A stretch of DNA of 64,000 bases from contig CAXXJV010000001.1 of the NCBI GenBank assembly GCA_963663475.2, forward strand, positions 1,312,001 through 1,376,000. Direction: 5' to 3'. Shown here in pieces: positions 31,935 to 61,845 of the stretch. The position numbers and the translations under genes are program-made. Source of the DNA: Candidatus Cloacimonadales bacterium (GTDB lineage Bacteria; Cloacimonadota; Cloacimonadia; Cloacimonadales; JAFGVF01). Below the pieces are notes generated by a model. The model made no database searches. It was not told the DNA's origin and saw only the letters and a program-made list of their open reading frames with translations. Each line of letters begins with the position of its first letter. The stretch's first letter is position 1.

Positions 31935-32318
31935 TTGACAAAACTTTTATAGTATGTAAAATTTGTAATATAAACTAAAAAAGGAAAGCAAATATAATGA
32001 AAATATTAAGAAGGTCTCTAGTTAATAATCAAATAATACAAATACCTAAAATTTGTAATGATTATAATACTCTTAATATATTAATTACACAAATCTTTCC
32101 TAAAGTACATATATATATATTATAGCATTTATATATCCTTAAAGAAAGACCAAGTCTATAACAATCACTTAGATTTGGTCACAAAAGACAAGTCAGATTA
32201 CTAAGTGTTGAAAATATTCAACACAGCGTCTGTTTTGACACAGATTAAAAAAATAAAAAAAAGGATATTAAAATGAAAAAGATAATAATAATGATGTTAG
32301 TCTTGATGACTGTTGGGA
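31935..32318 (+). promoter_or_regulatory. Conserved promoter + long leader + signal-peptide block, copy 1
   Basis: TTGACA-16-TAAAAT; leader near-identical to copies at 35034-35416 and 40540-40928; (AT)6 tract; hairpins at 32148-32180 and 32205-32224. Confidence 0.8.
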
Positions 32319-32611
32319 TAATGAGTGCAGCTGTAGTTAAAATTGGTGCAGATACGTACGTGAGAAATTTATCATTTAGACGTGCTGATTCAGGAACAGA
32401 TTTTGAAGAAGGATTTACTGATTATTCCTTCCATATTAATGTATCATATAAATTGGGGCTACAAGAATTAAGATTTGAATACCTCGATGTTGATACAGGA
32501 CAATGGCTTTTCTATTATGATTTCATAGGTGTTTATTCGTTGCAAACTGAACAATGGAGATACTATCAATTAATGACTGCTTATCCTCCAACGGATCCAA
32601 TAAATCAATAA
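32273..32611 (+). CDS. Small secreted protein, cassette A
   Basis: AAGGA RBS; shared signal peptide MKKIIIMMLVLMTVGI; ends YPPTDPINQ. Confidence 0.8.
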   Translation: MKKIIIMMLVLMTVGIMSAAVVKIGADTYVRNLSFRRADSGTDFEEGFTDYSFHINVSYKLGLQELRFEYLDVDTGQWLFYYDFIGVYSLQTEQWRYYQLMTAYPPTDPINQ

Positions 32612-32660
32612 ATACAACATTAATATGGGCAGATTTTCTGCCCATATAAAAGGAAAAATA

Positions 32661-34940
32661 ATGCGTATAAAATATGTTTTGCTAATTTGGATGTTATTAC
32701 TATTAAGCTTATTATATTGCGATTTAGATCATCAACAAAGTGATATGTTGTATGATGGTTATAGGGTGCAATACTTAGGAAACAATGTTGTAAGGAGTTT
32801 AAATAGAGTTTTATTGTTTGATAGTTATGGTATTACAGTTTATGAAACAATAGAAAATGACTTAGATGAAATTCTAACCTTAAATCTACCTAAGGTCAAA
32901 CTGATTGATATGAACAGTAGCTATATAGCTTTAGTAATTTTTAGTGCAGAAGGAGGGCCTTATTATTCTCATAAGTTACTTGTTTATGATATTTCTCAGA
33001 TTAATCAACCTTATATAGTCTATGAAGAAGAATCAAACATATTAGAAGTATTTTTAACTAGTAACTATTTAATTTTAGATAAATATGATAGGGTTGAAGT
33101 TTATGATATAGAGACATTTGAAATAATTAATACCTATAATGATATATCTTTAAAGCAAAATATCCATGATTCAATATATTTTACTGTAAAGAATCAAAGT
33201 CAAAACATCTATTATTTATGTTATCTAGATGAAAATGGTCAACTGATCCAAGATTATAATCTGGGGCCTAACTTTGGTAAGGTAGCAATTAAAAATGAAC
33301 AACTTTTGTATTGCTATCAAGGATTTATTGATTTTTATAATATCACAGATTCTGATAGTCTCACATTTCAGAGGACCTTTGCATTATCACATTTTGCAGA
33401 GCTTGAACTCCCGGGACTATTAATATTTGATAATACAATGGTAGTCCCATGCTATTCTAATGATAATGAACTAATTTCTCAGTTAACCTATTATGATATT
33501 AGCGATATTGATAACATTAACGAACTAGGAAGTTATGAGTTTTTTCCTGAAATGGGGCAATACAAGGACATGAGAGTTTATGATACCATCCAATGGAATA
33601 ATAATTTCTTAATGGTCATAAAAGGTTTTGGTGTTATTTATTCAGACCATAATAACTTCTTGGATGATTATACAATATTAAAGTATAGTAGAGCACCAAT
33701 TATTAGTAAAAATATTAATACTAAACTATATGTCAACTATAATAATATTCTTGGTTTTAATAATATTTTTGATATAAGTTCACTGAGTAATATTACTCAG
33801 ATAGAAAATTCAGATTCTTTAGGAACCCTGCATTGGTTTGAAGCAGAAGATAATCAATATGTTATTAATAATAACTTTAGGGATAGGACTTTCTTATTAT
33901 ATAGTTTTAATGATGATAGTCTCAACTATATTACTACTTTCGAACTTCCTCAAGAACTAAATAATTGGCAACAACAAATCTCTCTAAATCTATGGAATGG
34001 GCATGATTTAATATTTTCTTTTGGTGAAAGTATTTATTGGTATGGTTATGAAGATGGGATATTCTCGTTAATTAACCAAGATGAAGTTGCTGAAATTGAT
34101 TTAAGTATTAGGTGGTTTTATTACAACAATTACTTCTATAAAATATCTTATCAAGGTCTGCTTGAAGTTTATGTTATACAGAATAATTCATTGGATTTAG
34201 TTAACACAATTTACTGGTCTGATAATAATGGTCCATCTGGTTTCGTTAACCAGTGGGGAATAGAGGACGGGCTACTAACAATCGCTAATATTAATCCAAA
34301 TGGAGTATCAAAAATATATGATCTCAATGTTGATCCACTTAACTTAACAGCTGAAATTGATTTGGATTACTATCTTATGAATAGCAGGGTTAAAAGATAT
34401 GGGGATTATTACTTCTTTACTGGTTGTGATAATGAAAACTATACACCTTATCAGTTTTATGAACAACTTTCATACTTCAATATATATAAGAAAGTTGGTG
34501 ATGAGTTTATAAGAGTTGGTGATATTTATAATCATCGTCAAACATGGGATTTCGAAATAGTATTTCAAGGTCCAGATGATTTTACTGTCTTTCTCTGCTC
34601 AACTCGTGGTATTGATGTATACTCCTGTCAAGCTACCCCCAACGGTAACCTAGATATCACACCTGTAATCTTAAATTCTTCTAACTATCCTAACCCCTTT
34701 AATCCCGAAACGACTATCTCTTATAACATCCCTAAGAAAGGTAATGTTACAGTCGATATTTATAACATTAAAGGACAGAAGGTCAAGTCCTTACTTAATG
34801 AAGAGCAAGAAGCAGGTAAACACTCCATCATTTGGAAGGGGAATAATGATAAGGGGCAGAAAGTTAGTTCAGGAACATATCTTTATAGGGTAAAAAGTGG
34901 AGATGAGGAAATTGTTAATAAAATGATGCTGGTGAAGTGA
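32661..34940 (+). CDS. Large secreted protein with C-terminal FlgD-Ig/T9SS-type sorting domain, cassette A
   Basis: Signal peptide, beta-rich body (YDIS repeats), C-terminal NYPNPFNPETTISY...IYNIKGQKV...WKG.N..GQKVSSG.YLY...KMMLVK. Confidence 0.88.
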   Translation: MRIKYVLLIWMLLLLSLLYCDLDHQQSDMLYDGYRVQYLGNNVVRSLNRVLLFDSYGITVYETIENDLDEILTLNLPKVKLIDMNSSYIALVIFSAEGGPYYSHKLLVYDISQINQPYIVYEEESNILEVFLTSNYLILDKYDRVEVYDIETFEIINTYNDISLKQNIHDSIYFTVKNQSQNIYYLCYLDENGQLIQDYNLGPNFGKVAIKNEQLLYCYQGFIDFYNITDSDSLTFQRTFALSHFAELELPGLLIFDNTMVVPCYSNDNELISQLTYYDISDIDNINELGSYEFFPEMGQYKDMRVYDTIQWNNNFLMVIKGFGVIYSDHNNFLDDYTILKYSRAPIISKNINTKLYVNYNNILGFNNIFDISSLSNITQIENSDSLGTLHWFEAEDNQYVINNNFRDRTFLLYSFNDDSLNYITTFELPQELNNWQQQISLNLWNGHDLIFSFGESIYWYGYEDGIFSLINQDEVAEIDLSIRWFYYNNYFYKISYQGLLEVYVIQNNSLDLVNTIYWSDNNGPSGFVNQWGIEDGLLTIANINPNGVSKIYDLNVDPLNLTAEIDLDYYLMNSRVKRYGDYYFFTGCDNENYTPYQFYEQLSYFNIYKKVGDEFIRVGDIYNHRQTWDFEIVFQGPDDFTVFLCSTRGIDVYSCQATPNGNLDITPVILNSSNYPNPFNPETTISYNIPKKGNVTVDIYNIKGQKVKSLLNEEQEAGKHSIIWKGNNDKGQKVSSGTYLYRVKSGDEEIVNKMMLVK

Positions 34941-35416
34941 TTTGATGTGAAACAAGAGATAAATAATTAATCATAATTCAATAATAATAAAAGCTCATAG
35001 AATAATCAATATTTATAAAAATGAATAAAAATATTGACAAAATAATTATTGAAAGTATAGTTTGTAATATAAAATAAAAAAGGAAAGCAAATATAATGAA
35101 AATATTAAGAAGGTCTCTAGTTAATAATCAAATAATACAAATACGTAAAATATGTAATGATTATAATACTCTTAATATATTAATTACACAAATCTTTCCT
35201 AAAGTACATATATATATTAGAGCATTTAAGTATCTTTAAAGAAAGACCAAGTCTATAACAATCACTTAGATTTGGTCACAAAAGACAAGTCAGATTACTA
35301 AGTGTTGAAAATATTCAACACAGCGTCTGTTTTGACACAGATTAAAAAAATAAAAAAAAGGATATTAAAATGAAAAAGATAATAATAATAATGTTAGTCT
35401 TGATGACTGTTGGGAT
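34620..35416 (+). repeat. ~800-bp constant block (CTD + spacer + promoter/leader + signal peptide), near-identical to 40126-40928
   Basis: Direct nucleotide comparison, offset ~5506; the CTD part is also repeated at 37720-38025 and 43237-43562. Confidence 0.9.
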
Positions 35417-35732
35417 AGTTTGTGCTTATGATGCAGTTGCCGTAGCAGAAAACAATACTGGTAGGGTAATTACAGTAGGTATTGCTTTCATGGGTACTAA
35501 TAATTATCAGCAAGTTACAACTACAAGCGGTGCTGCGAATCTTCTAGGTTGGACGGGTTTACCTTATGATATTATTGCAGTTATTGGTACAAATATAAAT
35601 ATTAGAATACCTGGATACTATCAAGTTAAACAAGTTACATTAGAACATGGCTCTTCTCCTAATAATAAAGTGATATTTGATTTTTCACATCTTGATCCTG
35701 TAAAACCTGGAGATCCAGGACAAAATCAGTAA
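35370..35732 (+). CDS. Small secreted protein, cassette B
   Basis: Near-identical signal peptide to 32273; unrelated mature part; ends LDPVKPGDPGQNQ. Confidence 0.8.
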   Translation: MKKIIIIMLVLMTVGIVCAYDAVAVAENNTGRVITVGIAFMGTNNYQQVTTTSGAANLLGWTGLPYDIIAVIGTNINIRIPGYYQVKQVTLEHGSSPNNKVIFDFSHLDPVKPGDPGQNQ

Positions 35733-35781
35733 ATAATTATCGCCCCCAAGCTAAGTAAAACTTGGGGGCAAAGGATAAAAT

Positions 35782-38025
35782 ATGAAACTCTTACATTTAT
35801 ATATTTTGCTTCTGTCTTTATCATCTTTATCTTGTCTTGACTTAGATTTATCTAGTTTTACTGAATTTGGAGAGACTACAGGAACAGACTTTGGTTGCAA
35901 TTTCTATCATATAAAAGATGATTATTTATTGAGTGGAACTACAAAGGGTTTTTCTATATATCAATCCGAGGAAGATGGAAGCCTCACATTAATTGATACT
36001 TTAAATACAGAAAAATTTAACGCTCTGACTTGTAATGAGAATTATCTTGCAATAAGCAAATCGCTAATGCCAAATATTGATATCTATAATATTAGTGATA
36101 TGGAAAATATTTATTATTCTCACACTATACAGACTAATTTTAATTTGCAAGGAATTAAATTACTTAGTAATAATCACTTGTTAGTTAACAAACTTAATGA
36201 TCATTCTATGCTTCTTGATATAACTAATGGAAATGAAATAATCAGTTATCCCCAATATTTATTTCGAACAGAATCTATAATTGAAGATGAAGAGATGCTA
36301 GCTTATGATTTATCATCTATGACATTGGAATGGGTTTCTCTTAATGATCAAAATCAAATTGTGCTGTTAAAATCTGAAAATAGAACCATTGATTATGCGT
36401 CTAGTAGTTCAGATTTAATCTTCCTTGCAGTAGATAATTACATAAAAATGTATAATGATATTTATGAAGAGGTCGCTCTCGATTCTATTTCAGTAAACTG
36501 GTATGATATATCTTTCGCTTATCGAGGTATAGAAATATTTGATTCGAATTTGCTTTTTATAGATGCTGATTTTAATCCCATTTCGCAGATGGATGAACCA
36601 GTTCTTAATGTTTATGAACTTACCGATGATAATTTACTGTACATGGCTCAAGAATTTTTTTTAGAGAACTGGGATAATAGGGGTTATTTTTTAACCCAGA
36701 AAGTTATTTCATGTAATGATAAGATTTACGTTAATGCAGAGGTAGAAGGAATTAAAGGATATCAAATATATGATAATCAAGTTGTACTGATTAGTCAATA
36801 TGGAGAAATAGCTTACTGGGAAAACTCATTCTTATGTAAGGATAATAAGATATATTTAAATGCGAGAAACAAAAATAGAGAATGTATTATTTATGAGTTT
36901 AGTACTCCAGAAAATCTCATACAAATTGAACATGATTTGCCATATGGTCAATATAATACTTTTCCTTATCAATCAGATTATATATATAAGAAGTCATATT
37001 TAAATAATGAAATTGAATTTTACCATTTCAATATAGATGATAGTGAAACTCTCATAGGATCTATTCCTGTAGAATATAATTATTTATATTTTAATTTCAT
37101 TCCATTGATGATAAACAGTGACTACATTGTTTATCAATTTCTCAATGATATTTATATTGGTCATTTTGATAATGGAATATTTTTCGAAAATCATACTTTT
37201 AATTTAGGCTCAAGCAATACTCAACGGGAGTTCACAGCTTTCATGAGAAATGGGTATTTATACAGTTTGGCTACACATACAAATCAAATTCAGATCTTTG
37301 ATATTGATGAGAATAATCATGAACTAATTGCAACTGATACTTCTCACTATTTCAATATAAATCAAGCCTTACCTATTATACAATTAAACGAAAAGTATAT
37401 TTGTTTTAGAGGTAGAGGGAATTATAACTATCTTATTGAGCTATCTCCTGATGAGATCAATATTATAGACATTTATCGACTAGATATTGATGATATTGCT
37501 TTCAACAATATAGGTGAATACTTCTTTATGGTGTATTCTTCTAGTAGTACACTTGAGATTAAAGAATTTGATCACTTTGATGAGCCTCATTTCCATTTGA
37601 TTGATACTATTAATTTCTCCTCAAATATACAATCTATAGATTTAATACATCAGAATGAGAATATTTATAATATGATAGTAACAACTATGGGCTCTATCTT
37701 TTACTTCCAATGTGCAATAACCCCCAACGGTAACTTAGATATCACACCTGTAATCTTAAATTCTTCTAACTATCCTAACCCCTTTAATCCCGAAACGACT
37801 ATCTCTTATAACATACCTAAGAAAGGTAATGTTACCGTCGATATTTATAACATTAAAGGACAGAAGGTCAAGTCTTTACTTAAAGAAGAGCAAGACGCAG
37901 GTAAACACTCCATCATTTGGAAGGGGAATAATGATAAGGGGCAGAAAGTTAGTTCAGGAACATATCTTTATAGGGTAAAAAGTGGAGATGAGGAAATTGT
38001 TAATAAAATGATGTTGGTGAAATAG
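35782..38025 (+). CDS. Large secreted FlgD-Ig/T9SS-CTD protein, cassette B
   Basis: Signal peptide; divergent body; near-identical CTD. Confidence 0.88.
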   Translation: MKLLHLYILLLSLSSLSCLDLDLSSFTEFGETTGTDFGCNFYHIKDDYLLSGTTKGFSIYQSEEDGSLTLIDTLNTEKFNALTCNENYLAISKSLMPNIDIYNISDMENIYYSHTIQTNFNLQGIKLLSNNHLLVNKLNDHSMLLDITNGNEIISYPQYLFRTESIIEDEEMLAYDLSSMTLEWVSLNDQNQIVLLKSENRTIDYASSSSDLIFLAVDNYIKMYNDIYEEVALDSISVNWYDISFAYRGIEIFDSNLLFIDADFNPISQMDEPVLNVYELTDDNLLYMAQEFFLENWDNRGYFLTQKVISCNDKIYVNAEVEGIKGYQIYDNQVVLISQYGEIAYWENSFLCKDNKIYLNARNKNRECIIYEFSTPENLIQIEHDLPYGQYNTFPYQSDYIYKKSYLNNEIEFYHFNIDDSETLIGSIPVEYNYLYFNFIPLMINSDYIVYQFLNDIYIGHFDNGIFFENHTFNLGSSNTQREFTAFMRNGYLYSLATHTNQIQIFDIDENNHELIATDTSHYFNINQALPIIQLNEKYICFRGRGNYNYLIELSPDEINIIDIYRLDIDDIAFNNIGEYFFMVYSSSSTLEIKEFDHFDEPHFHLIDTINFSSNIQSIDLIHQNENIYNMIVTTMGSIFYFQCAITPNGNLDITPVILNSSNYPNPFNPETTISYNIPKKGNVTVDIYNIKGQKVKSLLKEEQDAGKHSIIWKGNNDKGQKVSSGTYLYRVKSGDEEIVNKMMLVK

Positions 38026-38211
38026 TGACTTTCTGGATAAGAGTGAGAGAAAAACAAACTTGTCTTTAATATGAAATAGTAATTATTGGATTTCTGTAAA
38101 TATACAAGTATAAATGGTTATTTTTCATAAAGTCCAAGATTGTGCTAGCAATACAAAAAAATGAAGTGAGATTAGGAGATAAAGCTCCTATTCTTTAAAA
38201 AAGGAGTAATT

Positions 38212-40446
38212 ATGAAAAAAGATATACTGATAATAATCACTTTATTATTTACTTTGAATCTCTTTTGTGAGTTAGATTATCAATTAGAATCAGAGTTTGC
38301 TTTTGGTGGTATTGAGTATTTGAAATATTCGAATGGAAAGATAATGTCACGCAATGCCTATGGATATGCAATTTATGAGATTCAAGATAGCGGCAATTTA
38401 GAAACTATAAGTAATGTTAGATTTTCTCCATGGGCTAATCATTATTATTCATATGATAAATTAGGGGTATATAGTGGTTATTTTACTTTTGGTAGGCAAG
38501 AGGATTTAGGGTCTTATTTCACTATCTACGATACATCTATCCCTAACCAACAAACTATTCTTTATCATACTCAGATAAATATTGAAAATATGTTTTCAGC
38601 AGAACTGTTTGAGAATTACTTTATCCGAAAAACAGGGAATCACAGCTACACGGTCTTTGATTATAATACTTTTCAACCAGTTAGTTACGTAGATAACATA
38701 TCATTATTATATGATACAAAGGTCAATGATGAGGGAGCGGTACTTCATGATTATAGTGATAACTGTTACTACTATTATGTAATAGATGATACAGGAAATC
38801 TTCACAGGAAGTATAATTTAGGTTCAGAAGAGAGAAAAGTTGCTATTTCAGGAGACAGGTTAATCACTTACTCTATGGGTGATATTAAACTCTATAACAT
38901 AACAGAAAGTGATTCTTTAGAATATACAGGGTCTACTTTTTATAATAATAACCCCTTATTATCAGTTGCTTTTGCTGATAACAAAGTTATATTTACCTCT
39001 GAAGAAGGATTTAATCCAAAAGTATTAATGCTGGAAATGTATGAAATTGATGTTGAAAATAATTTTAATCTAATAGACTCTGAACAAATCTATAATAATC
39101 CAAATTCAAATCATATGCCTGAAAGTTCACTTGTAATACTCAATAACACATTATACATCAGTGTGATTGATAGAAAGTTTACGCAAGCCAATATCTCAAA
39201 TAACAGTATGGAAATATTAGATGTTAATTATATTGGAAAAGGTAGATCATCCTCCTATGGATTTGTTAAAAATAATATATTTTATACAATGTGTTTTGAA
39301 GAATTTACAAGTTTGGATAGTTATTCTCTAGAAAACCATTCTAATGTGCAAGAAATAGATAATAACTTCCCTGAAAAAAGTGCTTATTGGTATTTTCCAG
39401 AAAATGAGAAAATTGTTAGATTTGATGAAGAGGAAGCTTGTTTTTATTTTTATGATTGGATTAATGATGAGTTGATTCTTAAAGATTCTTATAATCTACA
39501 GGGTTTTGTAGATAATACTTTCCTCTCCACCTACAAATGGGATGGTAACCAGTTTATCTACCGGATTGATTCTTCTTTAATATCTGTAAAAAAAGAGAAT
39601 GGTAACTTTGTGGAAACGTGGATTTTAGATGATGGTTTATTATGCAATTATGAAGTTTATCAAAATTATATTTATCAACTTAAGTCTAATCAAGGGATTA
39701 AAGTTTATTCATTTGATGAGTCTGGATATCAGCTTGTTAACACTTCTACACTTCCTTTTGTTAGCAATTTTCCTGCTATATTCATCAAGGGGAACATATT
39801 AACAACTAACAGAAAAAATATAGTAGATTTATCAGTTGATCCAGAAGGGCTTTCTATGAGTTATGATTTGAATCAATTTACTATCAACTCTAGTGCATTA
39901 AAATATTACGACTATTTAATGTATTGTGGTAAAGAACTTATCGAGACTTCTGAAGGAGAAAATGTTCTCGATAATGTTTTATCAATTTATAAACTAATTA
40001 ATGATGTACCTATCAGGGTGGGTGCAATAGAATCAGACTACATGATTCAAGATTTTCAAATTTTAGATAATGGTTCGGAAGAGAGTTTTGATATTCTCTT
40101 GTCTCATAATAATTTCTTTTCCATCTACTCCTGTCAAGCTACCCCAAACGGTAACCTAGATATCACACCTGTAATCTTAAATTCTTCTAACTATCCTAAC
40201 CCTTTTAATCCCGAAACGACTATCTCTTATAACATACCTAAGAAAGGTAATGTTACAGTCGATATTTATAACATTAAAGGACAGAAGGTCAAGTCCTTAC
40301 TTAAAGAAGAGCAAGAAGCAGGTAAACACTCCATCATTTGGAAGGGGAATAATGATAAGGGACAGAAAGTTAGTTCAGGAACATATCTTTATAGGGTAAA
40401 AAGTGGAGATGAGGAAATTGTTAATAAAATGATGCTGGTGAAGTGA
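38212..40446 (+). CDS. Large secreted FlgD-Ig/T9SS-CTD protein with no small partner upstream
   Basis: AAGGAG RBS; clear paralog of 41310 gene (ELDY.L.SEF.FGG, DNCYYYY.IDD.G.L..KYN.G.EERK.AI); same CTD. Confidence 0.88.
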   Translation: MKKDILIIITLLFTLNLFCELDYQLESEFAFGGIEYLKYSNGKIMSRNAYGYAIYEIQDSGNLETISNVRFSPWANHYYSYDKLGVYSGYFTFGRQEDLGSYFTIYDTSIPNQQTILYHTQINIENMFSAELFENYFIRKTGNHSYTVFDYNTFQPVSYVDNISLLYDTKVNDEGAVLHDYSDNCYYYYVIDDTGNLHRKYNLGSEERKVAISGDRLITYSMGDIKLYNITESDSLEYTGSTFYNNNPLLSVAFADNKVIFTSEEGFNPKVLMLEMYEIDVENNFNLIDSEQIYNNPNSNHMPESSLVILNNTLYISVIDRKFTQANISNNSMEILDVNYIGKGRSSSYGFVKNNIFYTMCFEEFTSLDSYSLENHSNVQEIDNNFPEKSAYWYFPENEKIVRFDEEEACFYFYDWINDELILKDSYNLQGFVDNTFLSTYKWDGNQFIYRIDSSLISVKKENGNFVETWILDDGLLCNYEVYQNYIYQLKSNQGIKVYSFDESGYQLVNTSTLPFVSNFPAIFIKGNILTTNRKNIVDLSVDPEGLSMSYDLNQFTINSSALKYYDYLMYCGKELIETSEGENVLDNVLSIYKLINDVPIRVGAIESDYMIQDFQILDNGSEESFDILLSHNNFFSIYSCQATPNGNLDITPVILNSSNYPNPFNPETTISYNIPKKGNVTVDIYNIKGQKVKSLLKEEQEAGKHSIIWKGNNDKGQKVSSGTYLYRVKSGDEEIVNKMMLVK

Positions 40447-40928
40447 TTTGATGTGAAACAAGAGATAAATAATTAATCATAATTCAATAATAATAAAAGC
40501 TCATAGAATAATCAATATTTATAAAAATAAATAAAAAGATTGACAAAATAATTATTGAAAGTATAGATTGTAATATAAATTATAAAAGGAAAGCAAATAT
40601 AATGAAAATATTAAGAAGGTCTCTAGTTAATAATCAAATAATACAAATACCTAAAATTTGTAATGATTATAATACTCTTAATATATTAATTACACAAATC
40701 TTTCCTAAAGTACATATATATATATATTAGAGCATTTAAGTATCCTTAAAGAAAGACCAAGTCTATAACAATCACTTAGATTTGGTCACAAAAGACAAGT
40801 CAGATTACTAAGTGTTGAAAATATTCAACACAGCGTCTGTTTTGATACAGATTAAAAAAATAATAAATAAAGGAAACTATAATGAAAAAGATAATAATAA
40901 TGATGTTAGTCTTGATGACTGTTGGGAT
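40126..40928 (+). repeat. ~800-bp constant block, second full copy
   Basis: Matches 34620-35416; (AT)7 tract. Confidence 0.9.
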
Positions 40929-41260
40929 TTTAAGTGCTGGTACAATACAAATTTATTACTGATATGAAATTTTTTGAGAATGATATCACTCTTTATCGTA
41001 AAAATCTTGATTTAGGACCACATGAGCCTTATCGGCAAGAAGATATATCCAACAAATATAATAGTGAAACCAGAGAAATATATAACCTTGTTGAGGGGAA
41101 TAACCTTTATTGGGTTGTAATAGTAGGTGATCCTTTGCTTAACCTAGGTCCATGTGAAATTAATGTATCAGGTATTGACTTTAGAACCGGAAGTTATAAA
41201 ATAATAGAAAAAATGTTTTTCCATTTTCCTGTTGATCCAGGTACACCCATAACACAATAA
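40882..41260 (+). pseudogene. Small secreted protein, cassette C, with a +1 frameshift just after the signal peptide
   Basis: ATG 40882 gives MKKIIIMMLVLMTVGILSAGTIQIYY* (TGA 40960); the body ending FPVDPGTPITQ is in the +1 frame. Confidence 0.75.
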
Positions 41261-41309
41261 AATAACTACAGGGAGAGAAGTCTTTTCTCTCCCTATAAAG
41301 AGGTTAAAA

Positions 41310-43562
41310 ATGAAGAGATATATATTTTTATTCATGATATTAGTACTATTCCTTGGCGCTTCAGCAGAACTTGACTACAACTTATTATCTGAATTTGGTT
41401 TTGGTGGAGTTGCAAACGTGATGTACTCAAATAACAAAATTCTATGTGGGAATTCTTATGGATATATTATTTATGATATACAAGAAGATGGAACTCTGGA
41501 TAGTATTAGCAATGTTAGAGATAATTTTGAATGGATAGGGCAATATTCCTTTGAAAAAGTAATTGAATATAGTGGGGCTTTGTATTCTGATGACCCTATA
41601 AATTTTCCTAATTATTTTTCAATATATGATACGTCAGCACCTAACGAATTTTCTTTAATACATCAAACGCAAATTGATAGTGATAACATGCTATCAGCAG
41701 AAATGTTCGAACACTTTTTCATAAGGAAAACAGGCAATAATCAGTATACGATTTATGACCTTGAAAATTTTAGTACTATGAGTCAAGTTAATAATATTTC
41801 CTTACTCCCATCTACAAAATTTAAAGACTTAGGAGCAGTCCTGTTGGATTTATCTGATAACTGTTACTATTATTACGAGATTGATGACTTTGGTACTCTC
41901 CAAAAGAAATATAATATAGGTGCAGAAGAAAGAAAGATAGCAATAGATGGAGATAAGATGATCACTTATACTATAGGAGATATTAATTTCTACAATATCA
42001 CAGTCTCCGATGAATTAGAATTGATAGGTTCATTTTTTCTTCCAGAACCGATAAATGAAGGAAGCCAAATAGCTTATAAAGATGATATGGTTGCCTTTTC
42101 AATTGCCGAAGGAGTATATCCTAGAACATCAAGACTCTACCTATATGATGTTTCTCATGTTAGTTCAACCAACTCCATAGAGTTTCTTGATTGTGTTAAT
42201 TTGTCAAACAGACCTTATTCTCAATTCTGTTCAGCTGCTTCACTTGTACAAAGTGATAATGACTTTTATGTTTACACTTATGATTATTTACTGCACGCTT
42301 CTATAAGTAATGGGAATATATTTCTTGATGATGAGGGAACTCTTGCAACTGGTAGCCTTTCAACACAAGGAATAATTAAAAATAATCATCTATATACTCA
42401 ACATACATACAGAGACAACCATCTTAAAATATTTTCTCTTAGTGATTTGACAAATGTGCAAGAGATTAATCATGATTACCCGGATGCCAGTTTATATAGG
42501 TTCTTAGAAGAAAATGAAAAAGTAGTAAGATATGATGAACTGACTGGTGCTGTCTACCTGTATGATTTTAGTACAGATGAGATGATTTTGGAAGCTACTT
42601 ATGCCCCACAGCCTCCTTTCCCTCAAGATTGGTTTGAAGCACTTAAATGGGATGGGAACCATTTTATCTATCAATCCTTAGGCTCTATCTATTCTCTTGT
42701 TTATACAGATGGAGAGTTTACCCAAACGTGGTCTATTTCAAATTCTGATAATTATTTTTATAATTATAGTTATGGTATATATGAAAACTACTTATATGAA
42801 TATGAAAAAGGATTGGGAGTTGTTGTTTATGAATTTACACAAGATGGTATCAATCAGATAAATTACCTAACTATACCTTTTAATAGTGGGCAGGAAGCCT
42901 ATATAAAAGGTGATATTGTGAATATTGATAACAAAATTGTTGATCTTTCTGTTGATCCAATAAACCTTTCTCAGAGATATAATCTTAATCAGAATTTAAT
43001 ATTTGGTTACCCTAAAATATACAATGATTACTTGTTTTATTGTGGGAGAGAGAATGTGTATGATAATGGGACATTAGTTGCTATAGATGAGGGACTCTTT
43101 ATGTATAAGTTTGTAGATGATGCACTATCTAAGGTCGGAGTAATAGTAACAGGTAACTATATATCTAATGCCCAGGTTATCCCAGGGAGAACAGAGGATA
43201 GTTTTAATCTATTAGTATCTGAAAGCGGTCATTTCTCCATCTACTCCTGCCAAGCTACCCCCAACGGTAACCTAGATATCACACCTGTAATCTTTAATTC
43301 TTCTAACTATCCTAACCCCTTTAATCCCGAAACGACTATCTCTTATAACATCCCTAAGAAAGGTAATGTTACCGTCGATATTTATAACATTAAAGGACAG
43401 AAGGTCAAGTCTTTACTTAAAGAAGAGCAAGACGCAGGTAAACACTCCATCATTTGGAAGGGGAATAATGATAAGGGGCAGAAAGTTAGTTCAGGAACAT
43501 ATCTTTATAGGGTAAAAAGTGGAGATGAGGAAATTGTTAATAAAATGATGCTGGTGAAATAG
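41310..43562 (+). CDS. Large secreted FlgD-Ig/T9SS-CTD protein, cassette C
   Basis: GAGG RBS, signal peptide, same CTD. Confidence 0.88.
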   Translation: MKRYIFLFMILVLFLGASAELDYNLLSEFGFGGVANVMYSNNKILCGNSYGYIIYDIQEDGTLDSISNVRDNFEWIGQYSFEKVIEYSGALYSDDPINFPNYFSIYDTSAPNEFSLIHQTQIDSDNMLSAEMFEHFFIRKTGNNQYTIYDLENFSTMSQVNNISLLPSTKFKDLGAVLLDLSDNCYYYYEIDDFGTLQKKYNIGAEERKIAIDGDKMITYTIGDINFYNITVSDELELIGSFFLPEPINEGSQIAYKDDMVAFSIAEGVYPRTSRLYLYDVSHVSSTNSIEFLDCVNLSNRPYSQFCSAASLVQSDNDFYVYTYDYLLHASISNGNIFLDDEGTLATGSLSTQGIIKNNHLYTQHTYRDNHLKIFSLSDLTNVQEINHDYPDASLYRFLEENEKVVRYDELTGAVYLYDFSTDEMILEATYAPQPPFPQDWFEALKWDGNHFIYQSLGSIYSLVYTDGEFTQTWSISNSDNYFYNYSYGIYENYLYEYEKGLGVVVYEFTQDGINQINYLTIPFNSGQEAYIKGDIVNIDNKIVDLSVDPINLSQRYNLNQNLIFGYPKIYNDYLFYCGRENVYDNGTLVAIDEGLFMYKFVDDALSKVGVIVTGNYISNAQVIPGRTEDSFNLLVSESGHFSIYSCQATPNGNLDITPVIFNSSNYPNPFNPETTISYNIPKKGNVTVDIYNIKGQKVKSLLKEEQDAGKHSIIWKGNNDKGQKVSSGTYLYRVKSGDEEIVNKMMLVK

Positions 43563-51931: not shown

Positions 51932-52054
51932 GCGGAGTGCCAAGCGGAGTGCCAAACCGAAAAAGCGGAGTGCCAAGCAGAGTGCCAAACCGAAAAAGCG
52001 GAGTGCCAAGCAGAGTGCCAAACCGAAAAAGCGGAGTGCCAAGCGGAGTGCCAA
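51932..52054 (+). repeat. 33-bp in-frame tandem repeat (AECQAECQTEK)x3 + AECQAECQ
   Basis: gcggagtgccaagc(g/a)gagtgccaaaccgaaaaa units. Confidence 0.92.
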
Positions 52055-52720
52055 AATAATTTAGAGCAGAGTGACAAAAATAAATCCCCCCAAATCCAAC
52101 CCTTAACCCTTCCTCCAATTTTATCAGATTATGGTCCTGATTTTTTCATTAAGCGGACATCTGGTTCAATGCGGGACAAATTAATCGAGACATATTTAAA
52201 TTTAAGTCGAGATGAGAAGAGTCAAGTTTTGGGATATGTCAGGCAGTTCATGAGTGAGCGAACCTGGTATAGTTGGGTAAGTCGATATAGGAATAGGGGT
52301 CATTTAAAGAGAAAGGTAAGAGCAGATAGGGGTAAGAGTCGTAAAGAGCTTCCTACTTTTATGCAGGAGTTATTACAGGCAATTCTTATTTCTCATCCTC
52401 AATGGAATGTACAGAAGGCTTACGAGGATATGAAGCTATTGGCAGTCAATGGGGACTTAGTAGATTATTATACTGGTGAAGTATATGAAGATGTAAGTGA
52501 GTATTTGGTCCGTGAATGGATAAAGACTTCGATCGTTCGTGATAGATGGTATTTCAGGTGGTATCCTAAGAGCAGGCGAAATCTTTATACCAGTATGAGT
52601 CATGCTCGAGGAATAAACCCACCTAACACGGTATGGATGATAGATGATCATGACCAGGATGTATTAGTATGGAGTAAAGACAAGGATGGAAATGACAGGC
52701 AAATCAGGCCAAAGGTAATT

Positions 52721-55925: not shown

Positions 55926-56283
55926 AGACATGGGATGGACACCTGAAGAGCTTCATCAGCAGATAGGTAGTCTAAACATGGTTCGATTTGATAGGATAAG
56001 CTGTTGTTCAGGACGGGAGTTATCTCTAATCCTGAACCAGCTTTTTCAGGTTCAAGCATTTGTGGCAGACAGTAAATCGGTAAGATATTTGAAGTATCTG
56101 TGTAAAGATAATGATAATAAGGAGACCTTGAAAGGTATTCTTAAGCGTTGGAAAAAGCAAAGTGTATATCAAATGAATAACAAGCAATTAGCGTTTGCTA
56201 TATCGTTTTTAAAGGGAGATGAGACTGGAGTTAGGAGTGAGGAGTTGAAGAGGCTCACCACAGAGAACACAGAGAAGAATTGA
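55882..56283 (+). CDS. Mu GemA/gp16-like (DUF1018) protein
   Basis: R.IW.....MG...EEL......S..S..EL..IL pattern typical of this Mu-like phage family. Confidence 0.55.
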   Translation: MERKAAIRLIWHKSKDMGWTPEELHQQIGSLNMVRFDRISCCSGRELSLILNQLFQVQAFVADSKSVRYLKYLCKDNDNKETLKGILKRWKKQSVYQMNNKQLAFAISFLKGDETGVRSEELKRLTTENTEKN

Positions 56284-56357
56284 GAATTGAGAGTTGAGAG
56301 TTGAGAATTTCCTCACACGAAGACACGAAGACACGAAGAAAAAAAAGGAGTAAAATT

Positions 56358-56582
56358 ATGACTATATTTTTATTATTCACCACGATGGTATTAGCAATAA
56401 TGCTTACTTTATCATTTTTCGGTTCAACAGGCCGAATATCAGAATTAGAAGAGAAGAACTTTCTTTTAAAGAGTGAGAACTATCAATTAAAGCAGAAGTT
56501 TAACCAATCACAAGACAAGCTAAAGCTTATAAAAGTTCAAGCTAAGAAATTGAGAAATATTCAGAAGTATAGGGGGTGCTAA
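56358..56582 (+). CDS. Small membrane-anchored coiled-coil phage protein
   Basis: AAGGAG RBS before ATG 56358; N-terminal TM. Confidence 0.6.
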   Translation: MTIFLLFTTMVLAIMLTLSFFGSTGRISELEEKNFLLKSENYQLKQKFNQSQDKLKLIKVQAKKLRNIQKYRGC

Positions 56583-56813
56583 ATGGCTGCTTTGCATAAG
56601 GCATTAGTACAGAATGACGGTATATACTGTAATGGCACCTGGTATTATCATAAGGATATCTTAGTGAAAATGGGCCAAGAGTGCCTGGTGGAGAAAACAG
56701 GATTAGGAGAAAGAGCTAATATTTATGATTTAGAAGGTGAGAGATGGGATGGCCAAGCCCAAGCCGTGGTAACGGTGAGTGTTAAGCCTTTGAAGAGAGG
56801 AGTTAGGAAATGA
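56583..56813 (+). CDS. Stand-alone Mu-transposase C-terminal-like beta domain
   Basis: VQNDGIYCNG.WYY...L...GQ.C.V......A.IYD..G resembles the Mu transposase C-terminal barrel pattern. Confidence 0.5.
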   Translation: MAALHKALVQNDGIYCNGTWYYHKDILVKMGQECLVEKTGLGERANIYDLEGERWDGQAQAVVTVSVKPLKRGVRK

Positions 56814-57046
56814 AGTGCTTCACACGAAGGCACGAAGGCACGAAGAAGAAAAACCCCTTAACACAGAGTTTCACAGAGGTTAAGAGGAGTTTCACAGAGG
56901 TTTGAGAGTGGAAAGGATATGAAAAGCGTACTGGAATACGCATTTATACAATTTTAGATATTAACAAATAAGTCAAGAAGAAATTAAGAATTAAAGAGAA
57001 TGCGGGCAGGGATGCCCACGTTCCCAGTTAATTAAAGGAGAAAAAG

Positions 57047-57688
57047 ATGTTTAAGTTTTTAGAAGCACGAAAAGAGGGAAACAAGACTATCTTAAGCGTT
57101 CCCAGATGTTTATATGAAGATTTTAGAAATGAAATAATGTTATTAATACATGGTAGTTTACTTATCGTTAATGATCATAAGGATTTCCAAAAACAGGTAG
57201 AAAAACTGGAAAGTTTTTTGAGTGGTTCGGATCTACATATTTCTCGAGATACTCTTTCGGTATATCTTGCTTACAGTAATTGTACGGAAATATATTTGAC
57301 CACACACGGAGTAAAAAGGGGCTGTAAAATGAATGAAAAGGCCACAGCAGAAGCCATGAAAGATGTATTTCGTGCTTCTGATATTCTAGAAGTTCTTGAG
57401 CATTTTTCTGAAAGCTTTGATCAAAGTCTCTTACCCGGGTCAGAGGGTCAGAGAAAGTGTAATGAAAGCACCAGATTGTGTAAAGAACCAGCTGAGCAAA
57501 GCGAGAAGAGGAAGTCTTTGCTTGAATTTCTGCGACGTGATCTGGATGAAGCGATGAAAGCTTTAATACAAACCGGACAGTATGCTTATATTTGGCAAGA
57601 GAATCTAATAGAGCTGTTTCGCCCGACACTAAACATAATTGATAAAGATGTTCCACCTGCTTCTCAGATAGAAGTGAAGATAGTTTAG
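57047..57688 (+). CDS. Phage hypothetical protein (overlapped antisense by 57168-57734)
   Basis: AAGGAG RBS; 213 aa. Confidence 0.55.
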   Translation: MFKFLEARKEGNKTILSVPRCLYEDFRNEIMLLIHGSLLIVNDHKDFQKQVEKLESFLSGSDLHISRDTLSVYLAYSNCTEIYLTTHGVKRGCKMNEKATAEAMKDVFRASDILEVLEHFSESFDQSLLPGSEGQRKCNESTRLCKEPAEQSEKRKSLLEFLRRDLDEAMKALIQTGQYAYIWQENLIELFRPTLNIIDKDVPPASQIEVKIV

Positions 57689-57734
57689 TAATAGCTTCAG
57701 CAACCCGCATTAGGTTGAGTTCATGTTGTTTCAT
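57168..57734 (-). CDS. Antisense hypothetical protein with strong RBS
   Basis: AGGAGG 5 nt before ATG and a TTGACT box upstream. Confidence 0.5.
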   Translation of the reverse strand: MKQHELNLMRVAEAITKLSSLLSEKQVEHLYQLCLVSGETALLDSLAKYKHTVRFVLKLSSLHPDHVAEIQAKTSSSRFAQLVLYTIWCFHYTFSDPLTRVRDFDQSFQKNAQELLEYQKHEIHLSWLLLWPFHSFYSPFLLRVWSNIFPYNYCKQDIPKEYLEKYVDPNHSKNFPVFLPVFGNPYDH

Positions 57735-57807
57735 GGGTTCCTCCTAAAGGTAAATTTACAAATAAATACAAGTATTAACAAATAAGTCAAGGAAAAAGGA
57801 GAAAAAG

Positions 57808-58080
57808 ATGAAACCTAGAGTGATAATCCATTTAGAGTGTGATAGTGTATTAAGAGAACCTAAAGTAGTTAAAGCCTTGGAAGATTTAGGAATCGAAATA
57901 ACAGGGACAGCTTATAATCCAACAAGTAAAGTTGATGTGACGATACAGAAAGAATTAACCCTTGAAATGGCTCACAAGAAGATTGAGAGCATGTTCGAGG
58001 GGCTCCCACCCTCTAAAGTAGCCAATATACTAAGTTATATTGCTGATGAGCTAAGAGCTGATACGAGGTTTAAACTATGA
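57808..58080 (+). CDS. Small protein containing a copy of part of the transposase core
   Basis: IHLECD..LRE....ALE.LGIEI.GT.YNPT.KV.V matches transposase IYLECD..MRE....GLE.LGIEV.GT.YNPT.KV.V. Confidence 0.7.
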   Translation: MKPRVIIHLECDSVLREPKVVKALEDLGIEITGTAYNPTSKVDVTIQKELTLEMAHKKIESMFEGLPPSKVANILSYIADELRADTRFKL

Positions 58081-58370
58081 AATACTATGAAATAATAGAC
58101 CCTAAAGTAAAAGAAATGACTATACAAGGCATATTAGGGTCTTGTAACAAGTTAAATTTTACCGAAGAGATGCTTGAAATAGTCAAGAATATATCAGTCA
58201 GCCTGGTTCCAAAAGATAAAGGTACTTTATTAATTACAGCCTGCTTTCCTTCCAGACGGGTATTAGTAAAATCAGATACTCTACCAGTTAAAAATGCTGA
58301 TGATCAAATTGAAATAAGCAAAGAAGAGTATGATGCTTTGGTGGAAGTAGATCACCTGGAGGAAGAGTGA
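58077..58370 (+). CDS. Phage hypothetical protein
   Basis: ATGA coupling with the upstream stop. Confidence 0.6.
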   Translation: MKYYEIIDPKVKEMTIQGILGSCNKLNFTEEMLEIVKNISVSLVPKDKGTLLITACFPSRRVLVKSDTLPVKNADDQIEISKEEYDALVEVDHLEEE

Positions 58371-58582
58371 AAGAACAAAGGAAATATGTATGGAAAATCA
58401 AGTATAAAGGTGGTAATGGAGACTATATAGAAGTAAGTGTTATTGCATCAGGTTTTGAAGCATTAGCAAAGTGGTTGTACCGGAGAATATGGGTAAACAA
58501 TGTAATAACCATTTCCTTAGATAAAGAAATATTGGAGCTTGTTGATGAAGACTCTGATATACTACAATTAGATAACAATTAA
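58367..58582 (+). CDS. Phage hypothetical protein
   Basis: GGAGG RBS, GTGA coupling. Confidence 0.55.
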   Translation: MKEQRKYVWKIKYKGGNGDYIEVSVIASGFEALAKWLYRRIWVNNVITISLDKEILELVDEDSDILQLDNN

Positions 58583-58628
58583 CCACCCCGCCTATACAGG
58601 CATCAAAGAGTTGTCAAAGGAGACAAGT

Positions 58629-59243
58629 ATGAATAACGAACAATTTATGGAGTTAAGTCCTGAAGAAAGATTTGAAGCAATCAGGAAGCTCTTAGGAAAG
58701 ATGGAACTTAGTATGGTAGAGACAGGTAATCTGCTCTCTGAGATTAAGAGAATGCGAACATACAAAATAAAGGGTTATAAGAGCTTTAGAGAGTTTACTG
58801 AAGCTGAGTATAACCTACCCGGTAGAGTGGCCAATTCTTTAACTAAGATGTATGACTTCTTTATTAGAGAGATGAACCTGGATGAAGATACTATCAATAA
58901 GGTTGGTTTTGATAAGTTGGAGTTAATCCACCCAATAGTAAAAGATACAAGTTATGAAGTTCAGGAGGAGTGGGTAAAAACAGCTGAAGACCTTACATAT
59001 CCTGAGTTAAATGAGAAAGTAAAAGAGATAAAGGTAAAAGCCCGGGAAGAAGCAAAGACCTTAAAAGATGTCTTAGTAGAACAATATTTTGAGAACATGC
59101 TGGGTTACTTTAACTGCTCTAAGAGAGAATTAAGTTATAAGTTAGCTCTCTATTTCCAGGATATGGACTTGCAGGAAGTTAATGAAGTGATCAGGAAGCA
59201 ACAGAGGAAGTTTGAGGAAGAGGTAGAAAAGTCTTCACACTAA
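58629..59243 (+). CDS. Phage protein, DUF3102-like
   Basis: E.G.LL.EIK......GY.SF.EF.E.E..L....A..L..MY pattern; AAGGAG RBS. Confidence 0.55.
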   Translation: MNNEQFMELSPEERFEAIRKLLGKMELSMVETGNLLSEIKRMRTYKIKGYKSFREFTEAEYNLPGRVANSLTKMYDFFIREMNLDEDTINKVGFDKLELIHPIVKDTSYEVQEEWVKTAEDLTYPELNEKVKEIKVKAREEAKTLKDVLVEQYFENMLGYFNCSKRELSYKLALYFQDMDLQEVNEVIRKQQRKFEEEVEKSSH

Positions 59244-59345
59244 TTAACACGAATTTAAGCAAATTAACACGAATTAAGAAATACCCTTAACACAGAGTTT
59301 CACAGAGGTTAAGAGGAGTTTCACAGAGTTTTAAGAGAGGAGAAT

Positions 59346-59456
59346 ATGAAAAAAGGAATCAAACACAATGAAATAAGCAAAATAGCTAAAGAACTAAGAG
59401 GTTCAAGAGCCGAAAGAAGAAGAGAAGCGAAAAAGATAATAAAGAGAGGTAAATAA
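59346..59456 (+). CDS. 36-aa basic peptide
   Basis: GAGGAG RBS; MKKGIKHNEISKIAKELRGSRAERRREAKKIIKRGK; TAATG coupling to the next gene. Confidence 0.45.
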   Translation: MKKGIKHNEISKIAKELRGSRAERRREAKKIIKRGK

Positions 59457-60067
59457 TGGCAAAAGAGATTAAAGAAGGAAAGAGTGTATATTGGGTCGAT
59501 GGAGAAGGATATAAGGTTCCTGTAAAGTATATCAGTAAAGATGATCAGGCCCGTGATGAGTTAGTGTGTAAAGTTATAAGTGATGTTATTGCACTTCAGA
59601 AGCAGATAGCAGAGTTTAGAGTAGATGTCTTCAGAGTAGTGGATAATCATTTAAACAAGGTTGCCCATCAACATGGTGAAGACTGGCGAGGCAATGCCTG
59701 GATTTATGATTTTTCTAAGGAGAAAGCCATCGAGGTTAAGATCAATAAGAGATTAGCTTTTGATGAACGCCTCCAATTAGCCAAAACTAAGATAGATAAC
59801 TATATCAAAGGACTTGTGAAACAATCAGGTAAAGAGATAGTTATGCTTATTAATAAGGCCTTTAATGTCGATAAAAGAGGCAATGTAGATGTTCAGCAGA
59901 TTTTAGGATTGAGACAACTAAAAATCGAACATCCGGAATGGCAAGAAGCTATGGCCTTGATAGATGAAGCAACCCAGGTAGAATCTACCAAGAAATATCT
60001 TACCTTTAAGGTTAAGGATGATACTGGGGAATGGAATACTATCAGCTTGAACTTTTCAGCACTGTAA
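59456..60067 (+). CDS. DUF3164 family Mu-like phage protein
   Basis: W.D..G..VP...I...D..RDELV, FDERLQ.AK..ID, AF.VDK.G, L..L.I....W..AM..I and I.LNFS motifs. Confidence 0.75.
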   Translation: MAKEIKEGKSVYWVDGEGYKVPVKYISKDDQARDELVCKVISDVIALQKQIAEFRVDVFRVVDNHLNKVAHQHGEDWRGNAWIYDFSKEKAIEVKINKRLAFDERLQLAKTKIDNYIKGLVKQSGKEIVMLINKAFNVDKRGNVDVQQILGLRQLKIEHPEWQEAMALIDEATQVESTKKYLTFKVKDDTGEWNTISLNFSAL

Positions 60068-60129
60068 GAGAAGACTTTTACACGAATTTAAACGAATTTA
60101 AACCAATTAACACGAATTAGGAGAAGATA

Positions 60130-60444
60130 ATGAATGATAAAATAAAAACTATTGATGATGAAATAGATGAAATGATAGAAAATGCAAAAAGTGCAAGCCC
60201 GGTTAATAAGGAGGACTTGCACTTGGTTTCTGATGAAGAGTTAAGTTCTCTTGAGATAAAGAACAGGAGAATCCGCAAAACTGTTGATGTAGCAACAGAT
60301 AGAATTCTTAAAACCCTTCATGCTTTGTTAGATGATGGACTTCATCACGAGGCGTCCAAGCTCATCTTTCACGTTGAAATACCCTTTGTAAAGAAAGGCG
60401 TTGGCAAGCCTATCCTTAGCTATAAGGTAGAGAATAACAGCTAA
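60130..60444 (+). CDS. Phage hypothetical protein
   Basis: AGGAG RBS; 104 aa. Confidence 0.6.
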   Translation: MNDKIKTIDDEIDEMIENAKSASPVNKEDLHLVSDEELSSLEIKNRRIRKTVDVATDRILKTLHALLDDGLHHEASKLIFHVEIPFVKKGVGKPILSYKVENNS

Positions 60445-60699
60445 ATCAATATCCTGAGAGGCAATTTTACGAATCTTGTATGAACAGGCTTCTGGAGAAA
60501 AAACTTTAAAAATACTTGATAAGATTTCAGTTTGTTCAGATATAACCGATTGTTCAATAGATTCATACTTTTTGCCTCTCGCTTTTTTTATGACTTCTTC
60601 AGGAAATATATACTTTAGAAAAGCCTTAGCGAGTTTTTTCTGATTAGTTTCGTAGTAGTAGAAGTCAAAGTTACCTTTATAATGAAAGGTTTCGTGCAT
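60328..60699 (-). CDS. Antisense moron-like hypothetical protein
   Basis: GGAGG RBS; TTGACA-17-GATTAT upstream on minus strand (-35 at 60752-60757). Confidence 0.6.
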   Translation of the reverse strand: MHETFHYKGNFDFYYYETNQKKLAKAFLKYIFPEEVIKKARGKKYESIEQSVISEQTEILSSIFKVFSPEACSYKIRKIASQDIDLAVILYLIAKDRLANAFLYKGYFNVKDELGRLVMKSII

Positions 60700-60984
60700 A
60701 ATAGCCTCCTTTGGAATTAATTATACCAATAATCGAAGGATAAGCTAATAATGTCAAGTTTTTCAAGGAGAGAAGATGTCTATAATGCTTTGGAAATATT
60801 ATCTACTGGGCTTATTTATTGTTTTAGGATATGGAAGATTATCAAAAAGTGTAATATGTTATCATTTTTTAATAATGCTTATGTTTCCTATATTAGTGGT
60901 AATCCACTGCCTGAAGATAATAATTCTCTATATAAAAGCATATTGTCCAAAATATGAAATAAGATTTATCCCGGAGAAAAGAAA

Positions 60985-61659: not shown

Positions 61660-61845
61660 AGAGTTAGGAGTTAGGAGTTAGGAGTTTAAGAGGCTCACAC
61701 GAAGGCACGAAGACACGAAGAAGAAGACCAGTTGTCGGAAGTCGCTACTTCGTGAGCAAGACCTGTCATTAGAGTAATTAGTGTAATTAGCCTGGGTTGG
61801 CATAGCTTTAGCGACGCCACCTGGATAGATTAAAAGGAGTTGAAG

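Follow-up and report, generated by a model that had tools for sequence, protein, structure and literature searches.

Paired genes for small secreted and large, probably type IX-exported proteins in a Cloacimonadales array, with a candidate repeat-in-uORF switch in their leaders

The window analysed here is a stretch of 64,000 nucleotides (nt) from the genome of a Candidatus Cloacimonadales bacterium (assembly GCA_963663475.2, contig CAXXJV010000001.1, positions 1,312,001 to 1,376,000), in which positions 31935 to 43562 hold an array of seven genes, all on the + strand, arranged as S1-L1, S2-L2a-L2b and S3-L3, where S stands for a small secreted protein and L for a large protein with a type IX secretion system (T9SS) C-terminal domain (CTD). 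The explanation that fits best, and which we regard as fairly likely, is that the array consists of tandem paralogous small/large units, each with an on/off switch formed by a simple repeat inside an upstream open reading frame (uORF) of its leader. The uORF, differences in tract length, conserved stop positions, homogenised CTDs and leaders, and differences in unit content were all demonstrated at the sequence level.

The initial annotation had treated the leaders as inert homology arms within a constant block, overlooking that each contains a uORF with a (TA)n tract, which measures 12, 10 and 14 nt in units 1 to 3 (32109-32120, 35208-35217 and 40714-40727), as well as conserved hairpins, in short a probable on/off switch (uORF plus tract in 27 of 28 leaders). 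These 28 leaders comprised 22 from eight genomes and six of those at 13 loci that a pattern scan of metagenomes had yielded, the other loci being duplicates or cut short of the needed parts. Their common order is a promoter-like TTGACA (seen where the contig extends that far), a ribosome-binding site, a start, mostly 33-39 codons, the (TA)n tract, a conserved TTAG, a complement of the Shine-Dalgarno (SD) sequence (anti-SD), two or three hairpins and the SD of the small gene. In the window, the promoter-like sites lie at 31935-31968, 35034-35067 and 40540-40573; the first, in which a conserved TTGTAAT follows TTGACA 17 nt downstream, is a consensus match only. As a promoter scan detected 85 sites compared to 82 in shuffles, thus not above background overall, the leader sites are argued from conservation. 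A search of Rfam gave no relevant match. A scan of genome contigs produced a single hit, which was irrelevant.

The tract, 8-25 nt long, was present in 28/28 leaders, in short-read and near-complete assemblies alike, and in 27 of them one frame was open for at least 32 codons up to it, the 28th leader being cut by a contig end; the other two frames were open for at most nine codons. Shuffled leaders reached the open-frame length in 1.4-5.7% of cases per leader (nine leaders tested, which are not independent). One leader of genome G002 has a possible start only six codons before its tract. TA tracts of at least 12 nt occur five times in the whole genome, and two of these are in the leaders under study. 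Relative to the -35 box the tract is placed some 170 nt downstream, and it would be translated as part of the uORF. As TA has 2 nt, each TA gained or lost shifts the frame, and the first stops met in the three frames, counted from a post-tract anchor, are found at +1 in 27/28 leaders, at +9 in 20/28 (in the rest mostly at +39 or later) and at +20 in 24/28. At present, 11 leaders are in the early-stop state, 12 in the +9/+39 frame and five at +20. Lineages that share only about 50% identity in their leaders have nevertheless kept the uORF, the tract and the stop positions. Contig depth points to one shared 14-nt tract in the leaders of run X5 and to a 12-nt tract in those of run X18, a picture blurred by contig merging. 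Taken together, these features make it quite probable that the (TA)n tract in the leader uORF works as a repeat-driven switch that turns its unit on and off at random. Most 10-nt TA tracts are accounted for by another element, a family of intergenic repeats dispersed over the genome, whose core alternates A and T (window 17362) and has 40 exact matches genome-wide.

In the proposed mechanism, slipped-strand mispairing would add or remove TA, and the changed repeat number would shift the stop of the leader ribosome. An early stop (+1 or +3) would leave the anti-SD free to pair with the ribosome-binding site of the small gene, turning translation off, and a stop at +20 or later (perhaps +9) would carry the ribosome over the anti-SD, freeing the site. 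The large gene would follow through translational coupling or Rho polarity, and the large protein would leave through the T9SS to be displayed on the surface, probably with the cognate small protein as its partner. At the shared blocks, gene conversion together with unequal recombination would keep export tag and switch uniform, and by the same events units would be gained, lost and reordered. Applied to the window, uORF 1 (31997-32125, 42 codons) stops at +3, uORF 2 (35096-35239, 47 codons) crosses the anti-SD and stops at +20, and uORF 3 (40602-40730, 42 codons) stops at +1, so that this assembly is predicted to have unit 1 off, unit 2 on and unit 3 off.

With regard to the read-out, the anti-SD of unit 1 (32133-32140) is an 8-bp complement of the S1 ribosome-binding site (32261-32268), and the helix predicted between them encloses three hairpins (32148-32243), closing a multiloop on the SD and the start codon (fold z -6.3). 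The stretch following the tract is the best SD complement of its leader in 18/28 cases, and the anti-SD co-varies with the SD between lineages (TATCC/GGATA, CTTCCTT/AAGGAAG, TTTCC/GGAAA and TCCATA/TATGGA). Among 1215 control genes examined at the same distance, 4.9% reach -8 kcal/mol. When a ribosome with an assumed footprint of 13 nt past the stop was modelled on the unit 1 leader, SD pairing was 0.99 at the +1 stop, 0.07 at +9 and 0.46 at +20. Hairpins 1 and 2 show compensatory changes, with 91.9% of cells paired (0/500 shuffles), a value inflated by kin and computed with three rows misregistered at hairpin 1. From these data we lean towards the anti-SD helix as the read-out of the switch.

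The same design was found with another repeat unit in a second family (f8). Genome G018 carries four units in tandem on one contig, with bodies 30-39% identical and CTD DNA 81-90% identical, and five (ATCT)n tracts (n = 8, 11, 6, 7 and 7), all in homologous leaders within a uORF. In each of these leaders, two frames stop 30-38 nt before the complement of a GGAGGT site, whereas the remaining frame stays open until 53-107 nt beyond it; one of the five is presently in the read-past frame. One leader of G028 contains (ATCT)10 with the same stop logic, and G034 has no tract. At another locus (L119:8297, genome G196), a 16-nt homopolymer lies just after TTGACA upstream of a small-large pair, possibly a case of promoter-spacer phase variation.

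The constant parts described by the initial annotation were borne out by alignment. The four CTD copies show 97.7-98.7% DNA identity over 302-317 nt (three pairs aligned), the three leaders plus signal peptide 92% over 476-478 nt (unit 1 vs. 2 or 3), and the block that spans a gene boundary with CTD, intergenic region, leader and signal is 97.8% identical over 805 aligned bases between 34620-35426 and 40126-40938. A genome-wide sequence search, as the annotation had advised, counted exactly four such CTDs and three such leaders in the 3.3-Mb genome, the next-best CTD match being a stretch of at most 74% identity, besides two matches of 38-53 nt. Also the suspicion that the identical blocks might be assembly consensus artefacts was followed up and could be dismissed, by the short-read contigs of run X1 and by the presence of arrays in seven other genomes. 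As the X1 contigs cover each variable part with 0 differences, both the array and the frameshift in S3, whose sequence is identical in contigs of runs X1 and X3 (0 differences), are real.

In a comparison of 26 large genes from eight genomes, CTDs from one genome, or from closely related lineages, clustered in their tree, but the tree of the bodies followed their types. Among genes of multi-copy genomes, the nearest CTD was within the same genome in 20/21 cases and the nearest body in 4/21 (22/22 and 11/22, respectively, with three close genomes pooled). Synonymous CTD differences were 3-8% in the window (six pairs), had a median of 13% within genomes (37 pairs) and a median of 45% with a minimum of 28% between lineages (220 pairs). 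Because CTDs group by genome and bodies by type, the shared CTD and leader blocks have very probably been homogenised by recombination or gene conversion, that is, by concerted evolution, as had been suggested from the window alone. CTDs are not as diverged as their bodies, nor is the order of the units fixed. Selection at the protein level alone was considered as the cause of CTD identity and rejected, as the homogenisation extends to synonymous sites. Bodies that are divergent or different bear near-identical C-termini at five or more other places in this genome; CTD homogenisation is thus no peculiarity of this array, and the swapping or conversion of CTDs seems to be genome-wide. The genes concerned, on contig G000 C1, are at 802309 and 1182418, 1505736 and 1508190, 2810595 and 2813131, 2498309-2514988, and 1067821 and 1070519, one of the near-identical pairs being 380 kb apart.

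Unit content and order vary between genomes, as had been anticipated. The L3 body has matches in 7/60 related genomes, all of the window's family; at the site of the array, a single large gene is found in G004, three in another order in G006 and four in the window genome, and G008 has six units at another place. The expectation of one matched small/large pair per cassette held for S1-L1 and S2-L2a, but L2b lacks a small gene and a leader in this strain and S3 carries a +1 frameshift shortly after the signal peptide. L2b does have a small gene and leader in G005, in G006 (interrupted) and in runs X9 and X13, whose contigs link a small gene to it; these two runs give no cover over unit 2, which was not taken as absence. 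Large genes that lack a small gene are intact in G000, G003 and G006. Several rearrangements were seen in passing: about 2 kb with an ORF of 445 amino acids (aa), without NCBIfam family, inserted in the middle of a small gene (L041:11265-13430, G006); opposite-strand genes for a 267-aa lipoprotein-like protein, an 86-aa membrane protein and a ParA-like fragment between a CTD and the next leader (L043:11000-13300, G003); and leaders joined straight to a large gene without a small gene (L067, L050:2-446 and L107:2063-2300, the tract of the last being interrupted).

The large proteins L1 (32661-34940, 759 aa), L2a (35782-38025, 747 aa), L2b (38212-40446, 744 aa) and L3 (41310-43562, 750 aa) belong to one predicted propeller family. 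Their variable DNA had been thought unrelated between units, an assignment that had to be abandoned, as the four bodies align over their full length at 20-42% identity (BLASTP) and the small proteins form one family; by sequence comparison the bodies are old paralogues. The model of the L1 body (pLDDT, the predicted local distance difference test, 87) is almost all-beta, and what Foldseek matched to it, at 8-12% identity, were generic propellers of the tandem WD40 type, so that a double beta-propeller is predicted. A relative of L3 at 72% identity comes from a Candidatus Cloacimonadales bacterium. There is one invariant column in 25 large-body sequences, and therefore no catalytic site is apparent; family searches matched no enzyme family, peptidases included. 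Distant homologues have 700-760 aa and T9SS CTDs, some with LVIVD repeats, and 32 of the 232 genomes of the phylum match in a search with the alignment. Of 19 distant loci inspected (three others were set aside because the flank was too short or the match was internal), 11 are directly preceded upstream by an intact gene for a small secreted protein whose tail is Pro/Asp-rich, and in two more it is cut or broken; by these matches the small-large pair is wider than this genus. An extra small acidic secreted ORF of about 60-90 aa stands upstream of the small gene at five distant loci (L088, L093, L097, L101 and L102).

The small proteins (107-124 aa) are one divergent family with a common first strand and a Pro-rich tail; S1 (32273-32611) has 112 aa, S2 (35370-35732) has 120 aa and the frameshifted S3 gene occupies 40882-41260. 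S1 was modelled (pLDDT 89) as a six-strand beta-sandwich with a loose Pro-rich tail, and its best structural matches are transthyretin/CnaB-like sandwiches (Z about 6, best 6.3), no more than a common fold. No Pfam or NCBIfam family was found above cut-off and no sequence match in the PDB; Foldseek E values were above 0.08, Atlas scores were 0.76, and no potempin was among the structural matches of S1 listed. None of the small proteins has a lipobox cysteine at +1, the signal ending in SA, CA or NA. Similarity between small proteins is correlated with that between large bodies (rho 0.48, p 0.0002, 19 pairs) and not with that between CTDs (rho 0.09). Whether the small protein binds its cognate large protein is, from these sequences, an evenly balanced question.

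All four large proteins match the type-A CTD (TIGR04183, 37 bits against a cut-off of 23), PF18962 is also above cut-off in them, and signal peptides were judged by eye. SprA, PorV and PorU exceed their family cut-offs in the genome, which encodes 137 CTD-bearing proteins according to our own profile. From this we infer that the large proteins are exported by the T9SS, a system considered possible in this phylum (PMC11285876); the cellulosome-like CTD protein described in PMC8542988 is not this locus. The 13 PorV-family matches at several places of G000 C1, four of them above cut-off, read as many shuttles for the 137 CTD proteins.

Several results weigh against a switch of this kind. The leader copies and their kin are not independent. 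In 10/28 leaders (G005-type, G002_S and L066) some other stretch complements the SD better than the anti-SD does, five G005 leaders keep the SD paired (0.59-0.81) after the anti-SD is blocked, and the duplex of G008 has only -4.9 kcal/mol, a value reached by 28% of the control genes. Within the window, SD pairing in unit 2 is just 0.28 at the +1 stop with the modelled footprint, and the leaders retain pairing of 0.29-0.46 at +20; as the +1 stop is about 12 nt from the anti-SD, the OFF state depends on the assumed footprint. Blocking in G018 lowers SD pairing just to 0.16-0.81. A comparable repeat is absent in 8/10 distant small-large loci checked, the other two being that of G018 and one whose -35 box is closely followed by a T16 run, and some large genes lack a small gene or directly follow the leader; therefore, neither the switch nor the partner is obligatory. 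Finally, linkage alone, without binding, would explain the co-inheritance of small and large types.

The weak SD pairing of G005-type leaders is what a read-out at transcription would cover, in which the same repeat and uORF act as in pil1 or tnaC, with the leader ribosome melting a terminator or masking a Rho site. The large gene would come under the direct control of such a read-out, compensatory changes preserve hairpins 1 and 2, the +20 and +39 stops place the ribosome on hairpin 1, and Rho is encoded in the genome (above its family cut-off). Nevertheless, a consensus scan detected no plus-strand terminator-like site in the window's leaders, the sequence after the hairpins is A-rich, and the OFF and ON frames of G018 bracket an SD complement, for which reasons we hold a transcriptional read-out to be rather improbable. 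It is hardly credible, on the other hand, that these are ordinary tandem paralogues under concerted evolution with a neutral TA microsatellite and an incidental uORF: the genome is AT-rich, CTDs are homogenised throughout it, homogenisation would spread any tract to all copies and most distant loci have no tract, but uORF, tract and stops persist in leaders as divergent as those compared here, and family f8 shows the design again, built from a different repeat unit.

According to the initial annotation, the locus serves to exchange cassettes flanked by homology arms, in the manner of polymorphic-toxin arrays, and the sharp identity boundaries, the differing content and order at the same site and the X9 and X13 contigs that join a small gene to L2b are in agreement with it. 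A store of silent cassettes is not what was found, since the arrays of complete genomes contain no truncated cassettes, only whole genes with their own signal peptides and paralogous bodies, and each leader-bearing unit has its promoter-like site; moreover, a given small type is found with its large type in different genera, none of the ORFs next to the array was recognised as a recombinase, and similar CTD homogenisation occurs at unrelated loci. We thus consider exchange as the purpose of the locus very unlikely. An explanation by the proteins only, with the small protein as a cognate inhibitor or immunity protein of an active large protein, would agree with the gene order, size and homogenised signal peptides known from potempins (PMC9890683), and cognate types do travel together. 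Against this, the large body shows no enzyme family match, a single invariant residue and generic WD40-like structural matches, the predicted cleavage site has no lipobox cysteine, and large genes that lack a small gene are intact in three genomes; the inhibitor reading appears unlikely. The preferred reading of paralogous units with leader switches can be extended to one joint claim of combinatorial phase variation in an uncultured phylum, in which a microsatellite-in-uORF switch per unit would act by translational attenuation, the two families using different repeat units, the small protein, which has no CTD, would be borne on the surface through its Pro-rich tail on the cognate double propeller, and gene conversion would copy tag and switch, so that captured pairs become switchable; as a whole this is possible but doubtful.

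The array is flanked by a SAM (S-adenosylmethionine)-methyltransferase gene on one side and a sigma-54-type response regulator gene on the other. Just 5' of the ribosome-binding site of each large gene there is a G+C-rich hairpin of different sequence in each unit (32625-32650, 35740-35771, 38173-38190 and 41266-41298), which may set the small:large ratio or the coupling between the genes. Other repeats in the window are a 33-nt tandem repeat of about four copies at 51932-52088, across which all three + frames are open, several short intergenic families (CACGAAGA-type and GGAGTTA-type) recurring between genes at 56210-63320, and 108-nt repeats on the - strand at 4727-5374, two copies of which are 99% identical and which we take to encode Sel1-like repeats.

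Scans for phase-variable genes target gene interiors and promoters, and would miss switches in leader uORFs. Such a switch would point to a free-living anaerobe that hedges its bets with T9SS surface proteins; as there is no host immune system, phage, predators or partners are the likely selectors. The small-large pair itself is an unnamed module in several families of the phylum. Among known multigene surface families, the lipoprotein families vlhA, with (GAA)n, and Vlp, with poly(A), of Mycoplasma reportedly have a variable repeat upstream of each member, in the promoter; the array resembles them in having a variable repeat per member, but here the repeat would be translated in a uORF. Polymorphic-toxin cassette arrays (CDI, contact-dependent inhibition; Rhs; MafB) have variable modules between shared sequence, with recombination changing their content. 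Unlike these, the constant part here is the C-terminus, formed by the CTD, all large genes are whole, and a family search found no toxin domain in the large proteins.

The initial annotation knew of no named system with this layout, which is only partly so. In the loci of the KLIKK peptidases of Tannerella forsythia, the CTDs are nearly identical and the peptidase genes are preceded upstream by small genes, whose signal peptides are conserved or even identical, encoding the potempins, lipoproteins that inhibit the peptidases in cognate pairs and whose mature parts are 4-14% alike (PMC9890683, PMC4404884). They therefore share the clusters of a small gene with a large T9SS cargo, the near-identical CTDs and the conserved signal of the small protein, and differ in that the large bodies here are paralogous propellers without enzyme match and the small proteins have no lipobox. 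No repeat-bearing leader is mentioned in the accessible text of these reports (PMC9890683, PMC4404884). In our literature search, which covered neither subscription papers nor supplements, this design was not described for Cloacimonadota or any T9SS cargo, and repeat-in-leader-peptide switching turned up just for two pilus loci of one streptococcus. In the accessible text of a 2025 review of phase variation, the terms 'leader peptide' and 'attenuation' do not occur (PMC11868660), and a review of Rho (PMC12360218), a ribosome profiling (Ribo-seq) study of Campylobacter (PMC11955535) and a study of repeats in Haemophilus 5' untranslated regions (PMC12721329) deal, in the parts accessible, with other mechanisms.

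The closest parallel is offered by the pil1 and pil3 loci of Streptococcus gallolyticus, where leader-peptide phase variation is read out by a terminator (Danne et al., 2014; PMC3894217). As there, a simple repeat lies in a leader ORF; in pil1 (PMC3894217), and by prediction here, repeats gained or lost out of frame give a longer peptide, the ribosome then covers an RNA element located downstream, and a surface structure is controlled. A repeat unit that is not a multiple of three inside the leader ORF was found in 27/28 leaders of family f1, in 5/5 of G018 and in one of G028, and the shift of the stop from before to within or beyond the RNA element was found when all frames were computed, the role of the element being predicted. 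The repeat unit is TA or ATCT instead of GCAGA (PMC3894217), and in place of a terminator, which the consensus scan did not find, there is a predicted anti-SD helix. As the stops are moved before or past the SD complement, and as the same design recurs with (ATCT)n, the analogy with pil1 predicts phase variation of each unit by translational attenuation. In contrast to pil1, this would provide one switch per unit in a multi-unit array, controlling T9SS cargo of an environmental diderm; if true, a version that acts on the ribosome-binding site, per unit and in two families, would make the repeat in a leader peptide a general device.

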